From Candidatus Sysuimicrobiota bacterium (lineage in GTDB: Bacteria > Sysuimicrobiota > Sysuimicrobiia > Sysuimicrobiales > Sysuimicrobiaceae): 53,143 nucleotides of DNA. The position numbers are program-made. The DNA lies in assembly GCA_040289515.1 (NCBI GenBank), contig PSLI01000010.1, positions 1-53,143 of the forward strand, read 5' to 3'. Positions 45,401 to 51,400 of the stretch are shown here, in pieces. Each line of letters starts with the position of its first letter. Positions within the stretch are counted from its first letter, which is position 1.

Positions 45401-48400
45401 CCACCGCCTTGCGGTTGATGACGGGCAGCGCGCCCGGCAAGCCCAGGCACACGGGGCAGGTCTGGGTGTTGGGGGGTGATCCGAACCGCGTGCTGCACCC
45501 GCAGAACATCTTGGACTGCGTGAGCAGCTGCACGTGGATCTCCAGGCCGATGACCGTCTCGTACTCCATGCCCGCGTACCTCACGGGCACGTCTCGCGGA
45601 CCGGCCCCTCGCCCCGCAGGAGGGGGCAGCGGTGCCGGTGCCAGTCTGTGCTCTGCTCGTACGCGTACGCCGCCCGCAGCACCGTGGCCTCGTCGAAGGG
45701 CCGGCCCACCAGCTGCAGCCCCACGGGAAGTCCGTTCGCGAACCCGCAGGGCACGGAGATGGCGGGCAGGCCCGCCAGGTTCACGGGGATGGTGTACACG
45801 TCCGCCAGGTACATCTGGAGGGGGTCTGCGGTACGTTCGCCCAGCCGGAACCCCGCCACCGGAGACGTGGGGGTGGCCAGCAGGTCCACCCGCTGGAAGC
45901 AGCGGTCGAAGTCGCGGCGGACGAGGGTGCGCACCTGCTGGGCCTTCTTGTAGAACCCCTCGTAGTACCCCGCGGACAGGGCAAAGGTCCCCAGCATGAC
46001 GCGCCGCTTCACCTCCGGCCCGAAGCCCTCCGCCCGGGTGCGGGCATACAGGGTGTACAGGTCCTGCGCGTGCGGGCTGCGGTATCCGTAGGCCACCCCG
46101 TCGTACCGGGCCAGGTTGCTGCTGGCCTCCGCGCACGCGATGAGATAGTAGGTGGGCAGGGCGACCTCTAGGGTGGGCAGCGCCACCTCCTCCACCACCG
46201 CCCCTAGCCCCTCCAGCACCCGCACCGCATTCCGTACCGCCTCCCGCACCTCAGGCTGCAGGCCGTCGCCGAAGAACTCCACGGGCAGGCCCACCCGCAA
46301 GCCCCGTACTTCTCCCTCCAGGGACGCCACGAAGTCCGGGACGGGCAGGTCCACCGAGGTGGAGTCGTGGGGGTCCTTCCCGCTGATGACCTGCAGGATC
46401 AGGGCACAGTCCCGGACGTCCAGGGTCAACGGGCCGACCTGATCCAGGGAGGATGCGAAGGCCACCAGGCCGTAGCGGGAAACCCGGCCGTACGTGGGCT
46501 TCAATCCCACCACCCCGCACAGCGCCGCGGGCTGGCGGATGGACCCGCCCGTGTCCGAGCCCAACGTCGCCACGGCCTCCCCCGCGGCCACCGCGGCCGC
46601 CGATCCTCCGCTGCTGCCACCCGGCACGCAGTCCAGGTCCCACGGGTTGCGGGTGGCAAAGAAGCCCGAGTTCTCCGTGGAGGACCCCATGGCGAACTCG
46701 TCCATGTTGGTCTTGCCCAGCAGCAGCGCGCCGGCTTCCCGCAGCCGGCGGACCGCGGTGGCGTCGTACGGGGGCACGAAGGACTCCAAAATCCGCGAGG
46801 CGCACGTGGTGCGCACCCCCTCGGTGCACAGGTTGTCCTTCAACGCCACCGGCATGCCCGCCAGGGGTGGCAGGGGTTCCCCCCGGGCCAGGCGGTCGTC
46901 CAGCTCCCGTGCCTGCGCCCGCGCCCGGTCCGCGGTCACGGTAAGGTAGGCACGCACCAACCCGTCCAGCCGGTCGATGGCGTCCAGGTACGCGTCCACC
47001 AGCTCCCGCACCGAAAGGTCCCTGCCCAGGCGGGGACGGAGCTCGTGATAGGGACGTCCCAAAAGCTCCCTCACGCCTCCGCCTCCAGGACCCGCGGGAC
47101 CACCACGAACCCCTCCTGCGCCTGCGGGGCCATGGCCACCACCGCCTCTACGGGCAAAGAGGGGGTCACCTCGTCGGGCCGGAACACGTTGGTCACACGG
47201 ATGGCGTGGGAGGTGGGCTCCACCCCTTCCGTGGGCACCTTCTCCAGGACGGCGAAGTACTCCAGGAGGCTAGCTAGCTGCGCGGCGAACACAGCCCGCT
47301 CCTGTTCGGAGAGCTCCAGGCGGCTCAGGCGCGCCACGCGCTCGGTCACCTCGGGCGTGATCCGCATGGCCTCCTCCCGGGAAACCTCCAGCATGCTAGC
47401 ACGCGGGGCTAGTCCTGCGCGCTCAGGTGCTCCCGCAGGACCCGCTCCACCTCGGGCACGATGCGCTCCCAGTCGGCGTCGGGCTCGCGGGTGATGGTGA
47501 CGAAGTCGTTCAGCAAAAACACCATCCGCACCCCGGGGATGCTCAGCAGCCGCTGGGCCAGGGGGGAGGCAGAGGCCTGCTCCCGGGAGGTGTACGTCTC
47601 ACTGCGACCCTGCGTCAGCCGGCGGTCCAGGGTGAACTTCAGGGCGTGCACGTTGGGGGTCGGCTGGACCTCGATGCGCACCGTCCCACCTCCCCTATGC
47701 CAGGCCCCAGAGGGCCGTGCGTGCTCCCTGGACCGGGTCCCGGCGCAGGCGCCGCAGGGAGCTGGAAGGGATGCCCGCCTCCTCACGGTACTTGGCTGCG
47801 GTGCGGCGGGCGATGGGGATCCCCTCCCGGCGCAGCCGCAGGGCGATCTCCCGGTCCGTGAGGGGAGCGTGGGGGTCCTCCTCCTGCACCAGCTGCCGGA
47901 TGCGCTCCTTGACGGGCAGGGAGGCGTCGAAGAACACCTCGCAGGACACCACGCGCCCGTTGGGCAGCAGCACGTACTTGCCGTCCAGGGCACGGCTGAC
48001 CGTGGACTCGCTGAGTCCCACCCGCGCCGCCACGGTGGCCATGGTGAGGGGCCGCAGGTACGCGGGGCCCCGGTCCAAAAACTCCCGCTGCGCCTCCACG
48101 ATGGCCTCCAGGATCACCTTCAGGGTGAAGTTGCGGCGCTTGATGCTTTCGATGAACAGCTTCGCCCGGGTGACGTAGTCGTGGATGTGCCGGGCGGCGT
48201 TGGGTGCAAACTCTTGAGGACACTTGCGAGCGCGCAGGTACAGCTCCCGGTACAGCTCGTTCACCCGCAGGCCCATGGTGGGCGAGCCCATCACTTCCAC
48301 CGCGTACCCGCGGGGGGTCCGGACCACGACCGCGTCCGGCCGGGGCACTTCCTGAGGCCTGAGGCGACCGCCGCCTGCGCGCTCGGCCTCGTAGCGGTCC

Positions 48401-51400
48401 GCGGGGTACGGGTACAGGTGGCGGCGGATGTACTCGTGCACCTCCCGGGCTTCCTGGGCGGACGTACCCAGGCGCTGCCCCACCCGAGCGTACTGGCCGC
48501 GGGCCAGGTCTGCCAGCAACCCTTCCGTGATGAGGCGCTGGGCCAGGAGGTTGTGCGGGCTGGGCTCCAGGGCCCGCAGCTGCAGCAGCAAGCACTCCTC
48601 CACGCTGCGGGCCGCCACCCCTACGGGCTCGAACGCCTGCACCACCGCCAGCACCTCCTCCGCGACCCGCAAAGAGACCCGGAAGCGGCTCGCTGCCTCC
48701 TGCAGCTCGCAGGCGAGGTAGCCCCGGTGGTCCACGCAGCCCACCAGGTACTCCGCCAGCTGTCGCCGCCTGCCCTTGAGGTTCTGCGCGGCCAGCTGCA
48801 GCAGCAGGAACTCCTGCAGGGACACCTCCGCGCCCACCTGGGTGAGGGGATCGAACTCGTCGTCCGGGCTGCCCCGGGGGGCCGGGGACACTTCGTCCAC
48901 CAGGGGCTCACCCGGTACGTGCCCGCAGTTGCCGCATGCCGCCCCCACCACCTCCGCCCCGCACCGGGCGCAGATCACCTCCTCCCGCTCCAGGGCCGGG
49001 TTCTCGTGCAGCTCCTGCTCGATGCGGGCCTCCAGCTGTGGCAGGGGCAGCACGAGCACCGCGCTCACCGCCATGAGCTTGGGCACCATCCGCTGCTGCG
49101 GCAGCGGGGTTACGTCCAGGCCCGGCCGGATCTCCACGTCCCTCACCGTCTCGGGGAGCGCTGCGGCGCGGGCAGCTGGATACCGTGCTGCTCCAGACGC
49201 CGTCGCAGCTGCGCGGGGCTCAACCCCAGCACCGCGGCCGCCTCCTCCAGGTTCCAGTCCGTCCGCTGCAGCACCTGCACCACGTGCTGCCGTTCCACCT
49301 CCGCCAGGGTGGGCAGACGCTCCTGTGCGGCCTCCGCACTCACCCCGCCCAGCCACAGGTCCTCCGCCCAGATCTCGGGGGTGCGGCACAGGATCACGGC
49401 CCGCTCCACGGCAAACTCCAGCTCCCGCACGTTCCCGGGCCAGGCGTAGCGCCGCATCTTGCGCATGGCCTGAAGGGTGAAGCCGGTGATGGGCTTTCCG
49501 TACTTGGTGCGGTACTTCTCCAGGAAGTGCTGCGCCAGCAGGGGGATGTCCTCCTGCCGCTCCCGCAGGGGAGGCACCTCGATGGGGACCACGCTGAGGC
49601 GATAAAAGAGGTCCTCCCGGAAGCGGCCGTCCCGCACCATCTGCCGCAGGTCCTTGTTGGTGGCCGCGATGACCCGCACGTCCGCGCGGATGGGCTTGTT
49701 GCTCCCCACCCGCTCGAAGGTGCGCTCTTGCAACACCCGCAGGAGCTTCACCTGCATGGCGGGGCTCATATCGCCCACCTCGTCCAGGAAGATGGTCCCC
49801 CCGTCCGCGGCCTCAAACTTACCGATGCGGGTGCCGGTGGCGCTGGTGAAGGCTCCCTTCTCGTGGCCGAACAGCTCCGTCTCCAGCAGGGTCTCCGGGA
49901 TGGCACCGCAGTTGATGGCCACGAAGGGTCCGTCCGCCCGCCGGCTCTGGTCGTGGATGGAGCGGGCCAGGATCTCCTTGCCGGTCCCCGTCTCCCCGTA
50001 GATGAGCACGGTGGCGTCCGTGGGGGCTACCGCCGCGGCCACCCGGAGCACCTCCTGCATGCGGGGCGAGCTCCCCACGATCCCCTCGAACTTGAAGCGC
50101 GCCCGCAGCTCCTCGTGCAGCTTGCGGTTCTGCTCCCGGAGCTGCCCGTGCTCCAGCGCCCGGCGAACCTTCAGCAGCAGCTCGTCCTTCTTGAAGGGCT
50201 TGGAGATGTAGTCGAAGGCTCCCTGGCGCATAGCCTCCACCGCCATCTCCAGGGTGGCGTACCCTGTGACGATCATCACCACGGCTCCGGGATCCTCCCG
50301 GCGGATCTCCCGCAGCACCTCCATGCCGTCCTTCTCGGGGATCCGCACGTCCAGGAGCACAAGGTCGAACTCGCCGGAGCGGGCCCGCCGCAGGGCGGTG
50401 GCACCGTCCACGGCCGTCTCCACCTCCAAGCCCTCCTGCCGCAGGATCTCACTGAGCAGGTTGCGGATGTTCTCCTCGTCGTCCACCACCAGCACCCGGT
50501 ACCGCGCCACCCGCCTCACCGCCCCGACGGTGACCTACCTCCCTTTTTTTTGTTTCGGCTTCCGCTTTTTTGTTTCGGCTTCCGCGGCCGAACTCCTGTG
50601 CGCGCCGAAACGGTTAGGGGTGCGAACGAATGTCCGCTAGTGCAGCCGGGCGGCTTGCCCCACCGTGGGCATCTCCGTCACCCAGCTAGCCACGCGGGCG
50701 AACTGCAGCAGGGCGTGCAGATACGTGCGCAGCAGCAGCAGGGTGCGCTCGGGGCCGGCCAGGGAGTCCGCAGTCATGAGGTTCCACCGGGTCTCGACGA
50801 CGGCCCCCAGCCACAGGGCGTGCTCCGTGGTGATCAGGCCCAGGTCCGCGAGGGGGAAGAACACCTGCCAGCGCCGCGCGGGGCGCTCCAGGTCGTACGT
50901 GGTGAGCATGGCCTTGGCCACGCCCGTGGCGGCTCCCGCGCCGTTGCTGAACCACGCCACCACCTGGTTGACGCGCTCTGCATCCTTGGCGGTCTCCTCC
51001 ACGTCCCGGGTCGCCACCTCGATCACCGCCACGGACGCCAACAGCCGCCCGAGTCGCCAGCCCACCCGCAACGGGTCCAGCATGCGCAGGGGCTGCCCGG
51101 GCCAGGTTCGGAACTCCGGGATTCCCTCCCCCAGCCGCCGCGCCTGCTGCAGGACCTCCCGGGCCTCCTCCAGCAACCGTTCCCGCGCGGATTCGATCTT
51201 GGCCTGGCTGTCCCGCAAAAACCGCGCGTGCGCCTCCCGGTCGTTCTCCACCAGCAGCTGGCCCCACCCCAGCATCTCGTACACCACGGGCAGCACGTGC
51301 TGGTTCAGCACGGAGGGCAGCAGCACGCCCTGGGCGGGTCCCAGCGGGTTATCCTCCCCCAGACGCTCCAGGAAGGCCGTCACCTGCTCCTCGGGAGTCT

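Follow-up and report, generated by a model that had tools for sequence, protein, structure and literature searches.

Locus of rpoN-A and its activator

The window, which is the whole stretch of 53,143 nt analyzed here from the genome of a Candidatus Sysuimicrobiota bacterium (family f1; referred to as G000), carries a gene for the sigma factor RpoN directly beside a sigma-54 activator gene. Four genes are listed for this region:

47409..47681, minus strand: gene with an Nfu N-terminal domain (PF08712), directly 3′ of rpoN
47695..49146, minus strand: rpoN-A, sigma-54, 483 aa (PF00309, PF04963, PF04552)
49143..50510, minus strand: sigma-54 activator, 455 aa, REC-AAA-HTH_8 (PF00072, PF00158, PF02954)
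50637..51536, minus strand: 299-aa nucleotidyltransferase/HEPN-like protein, adjoining the activator-rpoN locus

RpoN-A contains the AID as well as the core-binding and DNA-binding domains and scored 283.1 bits with the full-length family model TIGR02395 (cut-off 277.35). Alignment revealed a CxxC-x9-CxxC insert in its region II. The stop codon of the activator gene overlaps the start of rpoN-A. A genome-wide profile search found no further RpoN copy in G000, and the activator is the only strong PF00158 match, which agrees with the genome-wide survey's note: RpoN and its adjacently encoded activator are the sole RpoN and the sole sigma-54 activator found in this genome.

With its REC-AAA-HTH order and a phospho-acceptor Asp, the activator has the architecture of a group 1 enhancer-binding protein. 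Its receiver carries D54 and K104, and its HTH is of the Fis type with a poorly conserved recognition helix. The AAA domain is 81% conserved. Its loop reads GAFTSA in G000 and GAYTGA or GAFTNA in relatives (canonically GAFTGA), F/Y and T being kept throughout. For this loop S, N and H at position 5 have been rated as "putative" functional variants, and the exchange of F for Y is functional in TouR.

Synteny analysis demonstrated that the 299-aa protein is a conserved neighbour of activator-rpoN in f1 and f3, and also in at least two genomes of f2. Pfam and NCBIfam searches yielded no match for it, and its Atlas look-alikes are Polbeta and HepT-like proteins (0.92-0.94). The Nfu-domain gene, also a conserved neighbour of rpoN in relatives, is probably a passenger. 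No kinase linked to the activator was found across the f1 loci examined; in G000 the activator-rpoN locus lies apart from the pilus genes, with no PilS kinase beside the activator. A membrane kinase of family f2 was rejected as the cognate kinase, as it has no orthologue in G000 and one weak match in 11 f1 genomes. Among the orphan kinases of G000, a PAS kinase encoded at C51:4417-6645 carries a near-consensus site.

Promoter sites and target genes

Genes of G000 were called anew, resulting in 2051 genes and 90.8% coding DNA. The pattern TGGNAY-N5-TTGCW occurs 17 times in the genome and its reversed form 4 times, exactly as counted in the survey. Nine of the 17 matches are intergenic (binomial p 1.5e-6 at 7.8% expected), and all nine face a gene 32-152 nt away (p 3.8e-10 for intergenic and oriented matches at 3.0% expected). 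As the position weight matrix was trained on sites of G000, enrichment figures for this genome are circular. The survey had reported ten intergenic, oriented sites; nine of these were recovered, whereas the tenth, on contig C52, overlaps the final 18 nt of the gene preceding it. Solely the 5-nt spacer is in excess, since spacers of 2-4 and 6-8 nt gave 2-8 matches each with 0-2 oriented. Among relatives, whose genomes are not independent of one another, 23 genomes with RpoN contain 292 sites versus 53 reversed controls, whereas the 17 f4/f5 genomes, all without RpoN, show no excess (43 sites versus 72 controls). In G013, the activator is cut to 165 aa, the excess is gone (4 versus 6) and the pilin site is lost as well. 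Seven of the 17 matches lie within genes, which might point to chance matches in the A+T-richer intergenic DNA of a genome with 70% G+C; however, the spacer, reversed and shuffled controls, the co-occurrence with RpoN and the conserved footprints leave this explanation a negligible probability, and it was rejected. The sites are very probably genuine RpoN promoters, as judged from these patterns.

RpoN had been regarded as restricted to the family, and the f2 pilus loci as free of sites. Under the family labels f1-f7 of the present analysis, which may differ from the earlier ones, neither holds: RpoN is present in 8/9 f2 genomes and in the single f3, f6 and f7 genomes (0/17 in f4/f5), and f2 sites are found at sigF, pilB and some pilins.

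The core targets in G000 are preceded by TGGHAY-N5-TTGCT. Pilus targets comprise the major pilin, pilM-Q, two minor-pilin operons and dnaB2-pilT-pilC, and weaker sites precede two PilB ATPases bearing MshEN, both scoring above the cut-off of NF053729 (c-di-GMP motif). Sites were also found before four of the seven intact GGDEF/HD-GYP genes, with one mismatch at a fifth. The target identities proposed earlier (pilin, pilM, minor pilin, DnaB-like-pilT-pilC, GGDEF-EAL, GGDEF, two HD-GYP proteins and a receiver) were all confirmed, and a 33-aa ORF dismissed as unrelated turned out to be the remnant of a frameshifted GGDEF (diguanylate cyclase) gene. The dnaB2 site, said to be kept in f1, is present in 11/11 family genomes holding the gene and in 0/19 other genomes. 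Likewise, the pilin site is kept in 7/7 pilin orthologues; the pilM site is found in 5/5 genomes of the genus and is absent in genera g2 and g3 (0/4). In four relatives, a strict site lies upstream of 21 of 57 GGDEF/HD-GYP domains, against an expectation of 0.87, a count in which some domains share a site, one site is intragenic and one is of the flagellar type. About two thirds of the c-di-GMP domains in relatives have no strict site.

As the survey had suggested, the regulon does not appear to be one of nitrogen metabolism. Both glnA genes, amtB and gltB of G000 have no site (best scores ≤7.5 versus 18-22 at the targets) and sit with REC-ANTAR regulators, and the activator reached 453.6 with the NtrC-family model TIGR01818 (cut-off 558.6). 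A P-II gene was not found in G000 by searching with a short motif alone. DNA uptake is not supported as a theme either, because comEC and dprA are present without a site. Pili and c-di-GMP most probably represent the core of the sigma-54 regulon.

A site also precedes the gene for a SigB/SigF-type sigma factor in 9/9 f1 and 9/9 f2 genomes, that is in 18/18 informative genomes of two families, compared to 0/8 in f4/f5, which lack RpoN. In f1 it lies inside a coding region, where the rare codons GAA (15%) and TTG (8.7%) are kept in 9/9 genomes. Best matches of this factor belong to the SigB/F/G subfamily and cyanobacterial SigF, not RpoS, and it remains below the NCBIfam SigF cut-offs (PRK07408, 164.2 versus 261). 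An element G[TA]CTA.-N14-GGGTA, matching the SigB sequence GTTTAA-N14-GGGTAT, precedes the pilins in 8/12 f1 genomes; it is missing before the pilins of G003, G006, G008 and G011 and in the f2, f4 and f5 pilin loci examined. Its single oriented occurrence in the G000 genome is at the pilin, and we therefore claim no SigB-like regulon there. A cascade from sigma-54 to the SigB/F-type factor appears quite likely, and the odds that this factor reads the pilin promoter are about even.

The flagellar RpoN of relatives

In 9/11 family members a second RpoN (RpoN-B) and an activator are encoded within the flagellar cluster; the pair is absent from G000. The partner of RpoN-B is an activator without HTH, and a FleQ-like partner with HTH was not found for the flagellar pair. 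On contig C28 of G000 the flanks of the ~46-kb flagellar cluster lie 300 nt apart, a junction that rules out an assembly gap as the cause of the missing second RpoN. The single RpoN and single activator of G000 represent a derived state, the flagellar cluster and its pair having been deleted. In a quick tree, with an outgroup of 21 sequences hand-picked among 80 listed of at least 595 distant RpoN, the paralogues form one lineage-specific clade.

Two promoter types were distinguished, CGGCAC-N5-TTGCA for flagella and TGGCAC-N5-TTGCT for pili and c-di-GMP. In seven genomes with two RpoN the flagellar type yielded 41 matches versus 1 control, 34 of them on flagellar-cluster stretches, and 40/46 intergenic sites of the TGG type end in T. 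Exceptions are TGGCAC..TTGCA before the flagellar activator (g1), the dnaB2 site of G010 ending in TTGCA, and CGGCAC..TTGCT before glgA in G000 and before some cyclases. The RpoN-B pair has diverged both in region I and in the loop of its activator (GAYTHA), which is suggestive only of A and B pairs that do not cross-read. RpoN-A and RpoN-B probably read paralogue-specific promoters.

A proposed switch for surface life

We propose, with a probability of roughly 0.75, that RpoN-A and the adjacent response regulator act as a master switch for surface life. A kinase would phosphorylate the activator, which would open all -24/-12 promoters together, probably from solution rather than from enhancers. 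Pili, c-di-GMP-binding pilus motors and the enzymes setting c-di-GMP would thereby be made together, and, in a feed-forward step, the pilin gene would also be read from a second promoter, that of the SigB/F-type factor. In most relatives RpoN-B and its HTH-less activator would drive the CGGCAC-N5-TTGCA flagellar promoters; as RpoN-B would read its own promoter type, swimming and surface programmes would be set apart by positions -26 and -11. More tentatively, and at somewhat less than even odds, the choice between swimming and surface in f1 might consist of two orthogonal sigma-54 systems derived from an in-lineage duplication, each with one enhancer-independent activator, so that the core promoter (T/C at -26, T/A at -11), along with the co-diverged region I and activator loop, would determine specificity. 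Acquisition of a 16-bp site would then bring any gene into the surface programme, a route for recruiting new cyclases and phosphodiesterases, and sigma-54 would stand atop an older SigB/F-to-pilin circuit.

Enhancer-free activation is slightly favoured. The recognition helix of the activator shows an identity of 0.34 versus 0.57-0.60 for the other HTH helices (nine orthologues), and of 0.60 versus 1.00 for the neighbouring LysR (eight f1 genomes). No enhancer was shared by 66 promoter regions of five genomes, the best 6-mer or dyad being present in 8-13/66, near the null, and the G000 promoters alone gave no shared motif above the null. The drift of the helix together with the missing shared enhancer suggests that enhancers may be dispensable; moreover, 7/16 sites have <50 nt of free upstream DNA. 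Under classical PilR-like control the activator would bind upstream enhancers too degenerate for this search, with HU bending the DNA. Its HTH_8 does score 4.7e-12, within f1 its last helix retains LRR[RK], one HU/IHF-family gene is present and 95-545 nt are free upstream at several promoters. Nevertheless, no part of the activator is less conserved than the recognition helix, and sites occur before lineage-specific genes, some within or abutting the upstream gene, which together with the near-null motif search makes such control rather unlikely. Far less probable still is that RpoN-A closed complexes repress overlapping sigma-70 promoters while the GAFTSA activator is inactive: the non-canonical loop, the lack of a linked kinase and sigma-70-like and SigB-like elements near some sites would fit, but not the conserved AAA domain with its F/Y and T, the site loss accompanying activator decay in G013 and the promoter-like spacing and orientation of the sites.

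The survey's note had called RpoN apparently dedicated to pili and c-di-GMP. The core is well supported, but "dedicated" proved too narrow, as the SigB/F-type factor, glycogen synthase (site in four genomes) and a 97-aa protein are conserved non-pilus targets, and in G009 about 8/19 targets belong to neither the pilus nor the c-di-GMP group. Further sites were found at envelope and other genes, namely an M23 peptidase (G009/G010), an amidase (G000), ClpC (G009), GT2, GH130 and cas6 (G010). One related gene lies in the window, and its orthologues in G010 and G011 have a sigma-54 site:

23035..25140, minus strand: GT2 cellulose-synthase-like gene, own site degenerate (score 6.5)

These targets could be explained if the regulon served growth phase or the envelope at large, covering glycogen, ClpC, hydrolases of the wall and a stress sigma factor of the SigB type, with pili and c-di-GMP as no more than its largest part; this agrees with sigma-54 as "controller of the exterior". 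Such a programme seems doubtful to us, since it is at pilus-cluster genes and sigF that sites persist between genera and families, whereas most extra targets occur in one or two genomes; it would shift the emphasis and leave the mechanism the same.

Each component of the proposed switch has precedent: PilR, Rrp2, Rhodobacter RpoN1/2 and cyanobacterial SigF. The flagellar promoters of Rhodobacter have an A at -11. In Cereibacter (Rhodobacter) sphaeroides, RpoN1 and RpoN2 are paralogues with their own activators, distinguished at -11, and FleT is a flagellar activator without a DNA-binding domain (PMC11999139). Paired RpoN and activator and the -11 difference recur in 9/11 f1 relatives, not in G000 itself; the Rhodobacter split is nif versus flagella whereas here it is pili/c-di-GMP versus flagella, and f1 promoters differ at -26 as well.

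In Pseudomonas, Xanthomonas oryzae and Ralstonia pilA and pilC are driven by sigma-54 with a REC-AAA-HTH activator (PilS-PilR/PilRX/PehR), and RpoN2/FleQ of X. oryzae has c-di-GMP genes under its control as well (PMC7170775, PMC8657755). A sigma-54 promoter before the major pilin is common to both (7/7 orthologues here). By comparison, the activator here is the sole one, in an operon with rpoN outside the pilus cluster and with no adjoining PilS, and G000 sites span pilins, pilM-Q, pilT-pilC, pilB and singly recruited cyclases and phosphodiesterases.

In the Borrelia burgdorferi Rrp2-RpoN-RpoS cascade, one HTH response regulator needs no enhancer and sigma-54 transcribes a second sigma factor (PMC1976401). 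The site before an alternative sigma gene (18/18 versus 0/8) is shared; the downstream factor here is of the SigB/SigF type, not RpoS, and there are 15-20 direct sigma-54 sites instead of mainly one. In Synechocystis a SigB-related factor, SigF, is tied to pili, and the major pilin gene pilA1 is preceded by a -10/-12 element of the GGGTA type; cyanobacteria lack sigma-54 (PMC2532724). A GGGTA element precedes the pilin in 8/12 f1 genomes and in none of the f2, f4 and f5 pilin loci examined. Here sigma-54 stands above both sigma gene and pilin, and the Sysuimicrobiota factor falls below the SigF family score.

A literature search found no description of the combined circuit, and the main text of two phylum overview papers mentions neither sigma factors nor pili. 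The circuit would be the first transcriptional one for an uncultured, widespread phylum. It would also provide a second natural pair, seemingly independent of the first, for asking how cross-talk between sigma-54 paralogues is prevented. One switch would join transcription of c-di-GMP enzymes and pilus-motor receptors, and the two-base promoter prediction lends itself to in vitro work, the proteins being probably thermostable.

The window also retains a trace of the flagellar promoter type:

9834..9849, plus strand: CGGCAC-N5-TTGCA, a site of the flagellar (RpoN-B) type left as a relic after a tRNA

In G004, G005 and G007 the site precedes a small gene rich in Cys, which has decayed in G000.

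The rpoN-activator locus and its predicted promoters

The window corresponds to contig C33 of the genome under study (G000; 1.99 Mb, 70% G+C, 76 contigs, completeness 96.7%), which was annotated with a purpose-written hexamer-based gene caller, and gene starts are approximate. RpoN and a sigma-54 activator, the latter as the genome-wide survey's note had stated, were each found once in the genome.

47695-49146, minus strand: RpoN (sigma-54)
49143-50510, minus strand: receiver-AAA-HTH activator

The activator loop reads GAFTSA, and serine at that position of the GAFTGA loop is listed as putatively functional (PMC3162934). 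No kinase gene adjoining the activator was detected in the gene neighbourhoods inspected in f1, the family of G000. A direct repeat with imperfect copies and long runs of T lies just 5′ of the activator gene (50543-50586), and a fused nucleotidyltransferase/HEPN-like protein (50637-51536), possibly a pathway modifier, stays beside the locus across families; its Atlas cluster points to the phylum CSP1-3/Sysuimicrobiota.

The motif counts reported previously, 17 for TGGNAY-N5-TTGCW and 4 for its reversed form, were reproduced; nine of the 17 matches are intergenic, each oriented toward a gene, and altered spacers yielded at most two intergenic gene-facing matches each. A matrix built from the G000 sites retrieved 12 genes at a score of at least 16 (reversed 0, shuffled 0-1). 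The additions comprise, among others, pilB-pilC-pilin and one more minor-pilin operon as well as genes for an amidase and a 97-aa protein. The supposed 33-aa ORF target turned out to be the 5′ end of a frameshifted GGDEF gene, whose GGDEF motif comes later in another frame.

Among 40 relatives, RpoN was present in f1 (11/11), f2 (8/9), f3, f6 and f7 (1/1 each) and in none of the f4 (0/9) and f5 (0/8) genomes, and the activator distribution paralleled it. TGGHAY-N5-TTGCT occurred 292 times versus 53 reversed controls in the 23 RpoN-containing genomes (G000 included), compared to 43 versus 72 in the 17 f4/f5 genomes; G039 (f2, 86% complete, no RpoN found) was excluded from both groups, and no conclusion rests on the unpublished G023, one of the 17. 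In G013, the activator is shortened to 165 aa, and both the motif excess and the pilin site are absent.

Regulon content and conservation of the sites

All strict sites were retrieved from five relatives (G009, 22; G004, 15; G010, 20; G018, 12; G017, 24), and a Pfam scan covering 40 of their 62 candidate targets identified pilins, MshEN-PilB, GGDEF, HD-GYP and PAS/GAF/Cache proteins as the commonest types, many signalling targets varying from genome to genome. In four relatives, 57 GGDEF or HD-GYP domains were counted, and 21 of them have a strict site upstream within ~4 kb (0.87 expected). These 21 include two pairs that each share a site, one intragenic site and one of flagellar type; several of the remaining 36 have one-mismatch sites 14-51 nt 5′ of the start. 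Of the seven intact GGDEF/HD-GYP enzymes of G000, four carry a strict site and one more has a near-site. Since targets such as glycogen synthase (four genomes), M23 peptidase and ClpC, besides a 97-aa protein (four genomes), GT2, GH130 and cas6, were also found, the regulon is centred on pili and c-di-GMP, and "dedicated to" them was too strong. The cas6 site of G010 (L182, C14:187988), a strict one, lies 123 nt upstream of the gene. Among the targets, we recognised no gene of nitrogen assimilation, and no sigma-54 site was found at glnA, amtB or gltB of G000. The nitrogen cluster containing these genes (L254:2152-16633) also encodes a GAF kinase and two REC-ANTAR regulators, which suggests control by antitermination. 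At three loci (L031:11325-12755, L190, L141), a sigma-54 site precedes a secreted 150-165 aa protein, which had no match in a Pfam search, and then a chaperone-like gene; this might represent a second surface fibre.

The dnaB2 site, at the DnaB-like gene heading the pilT-pilC operon, was present in 11/11 f1 and 0/19 other loci (all 30 matches scanned), and the divergent site toward pilB is degenerate within the genus but strong in four genomes. Scanning 30 of 80 matches, the pilin site was found in 7/7 closest orthologues, 0/5 second f1 pilins, 2/6 f2 and 0/10 f4/f5 loci; scanning 30 of 43, the pilM site was found in 5/5 loci of the genus, 0/4 of g2/g3 and 0/19 informative f2/f4/f5 loci, with a weaker site in f7. 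The most widely conserved link found is the site at a SigB/F-type sigma factor gene (f1 9/9, f2 9/9, f4/f5 0/8, f7 0/1; 30 of 41 matches scanned, upstream DNA lacking in three). It is intergenic in f2 and sits inside the 3′ end of the upstream gene in f1, where two rare codons are kept in 9/9. A second DnaB-like helicase (L231:2807-4369; G000 C62:64807-66369), which is separate from the canonical dnaB of contig C9 and by features nearest to phage helicases, is kept in 30/41 genomes and heads or adjoins pilus operons in f1, f4 and f5, not f2.

Pili are an established target of sigma-54 (PMC7170775, PMC8657755, PMC6058289), which has been portrayed as controller of the exterior (PMC3162934). In the literature searched, mainly the main texts of open-access papers, we found neither this circuit nor sigma-54 in the phylum described. 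The observed pattern is real; the parts of the predicted circuit are of known kinds, and the circuit appears to be new in their combination.

Activation and a probable second sigma level

Within the activator, conservation is lowest in the recognition helix; a search of the promoter regions revealed no shared upstream motif, and 7/16 sites have less than 50 nt of free DNA upstream. Rrp2, FlgR and CtcC are known to activate without an enhancer (PMC1976401, PMC7175178), and we lean slightly toward the window activator acting in this way.

The SigB/F-type gene lies in or close to the pilus cluster, also in RpoN-lacking genomes. Its block in G000 (L225:2514-6419; C13:62514-66419), comprising a MerR-HTH gene, three unknown genes, the sigma factor and a roadblock/MglB-like gene, is tied to that cluster across the order. 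Upstream of pilin genes in 8/12 f1 genomes, we detected G[TA]CTA.-N14-GGGTA, an element that agrees with the SigB consensus given in PMC2532724 and PMC8346170. Where a sigma-54 site is present as well, the element lies ~45 nt upstream of it. Cyanobacterial SigF transcribes pilA1 (PMC2532724). The SigB/F-type factor, itself predicted to be under sigma-54, might also read the pilin promoter, closing a feed-forward loop. This step has only even odds, as the element is absent at pilin genes of four f1 genomes and of other families.

Within the f2 rpoN locus, the following stretches stand out:

L029:2800-3325
L030:12589-13055
L031:769-3340
L032:1117-3713
L037:176-3305

Here, small peptides that look secreted and contain repeated (A/V)TWE units occur in twos or threes, most of them preceded by sigma-54 sites. 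They are followed by a membrane GAF histidine kinase (8/9 f2 genomes) and a receiver adjoining the activator-rpoN genes, a candidate peptide-sensing feedback loop on sigma-54. The kinase membrane domain resembles that of a G000 HD-GYP protein following a micro-protein (E 4e-6).

Loss of a flagellar sigma-54 system

A second RpoN and activator (RpoN-B, B activator) were found inside a flagellar-chemotaxis cluster in 9/11 f1 relatives, eight of the nine having a detectable flagellin, which was not found in G000, G002 and G009; flagellar genes have been reported in two families of the phylum CSP1-3/Sysuimicrobiota (PMC11604079). In a quick tree, 14/14 sampled RpoN of the order formed one clade (support 99) beside Chloroflexota-type proteins. 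RpoN-B is divergent in region I and ahead of the ESTVSR helix. The B activator lacks an HTH; its receiver is degenerate and its loop reads GAYTHA. The promoter form of the cluster (flgB, fliL, flgF, chemoreceptors, activator) is CGGCAC-N5-TTGCA, which occurred 41 times versus 1 control in seven two-RpoN genomes (completeness at least 94%), 34 of the 41 on flagellar stretches by coordinate. Elsewhere, G000 had 2 matches, G009 3 and 29 genomes of other families 24 (controls 44). The flagellated G017, with one RpoN found, carries a TGGCAC..TTGCT site at flgB. The two promoter forms are not cleanly separated: TGGCAC..TTGCA stands before the flagellar activator in g1, the dnaB2 site of G010 has TTGCA at its end, and CGGCAC..TTGCT is found before glgA of G000 and before some cyclases. 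In C. sphaeroides, discrimination at -11 and an HTH-less flagellar activator have been described (PMC11999139).

The genes flanking the 46-kb flagellar cluster of G004 are neighbours on G000 contig C28, where the junction holds a 5′-truncated fliA, and a B-type site persists at window position 9834 upstream of a decayed gene copy, intact in three relatives. The junction and the relic site show that the single-RpoN state of G000 is a loss. The window further contains the following genes.

9313-9385: tRNA gene
9604-9691: tRNA gene
9749-9820: tRNA gene
10600-10670: tRNA gene

The c-di-GMP network of G000 is eroding together with this flagellar loss; fragmented GGDEF/HD-GYP genes lie at C52:14700-15081, C20:67282-67646, C24:4845-5054 and C7:7771-10160.
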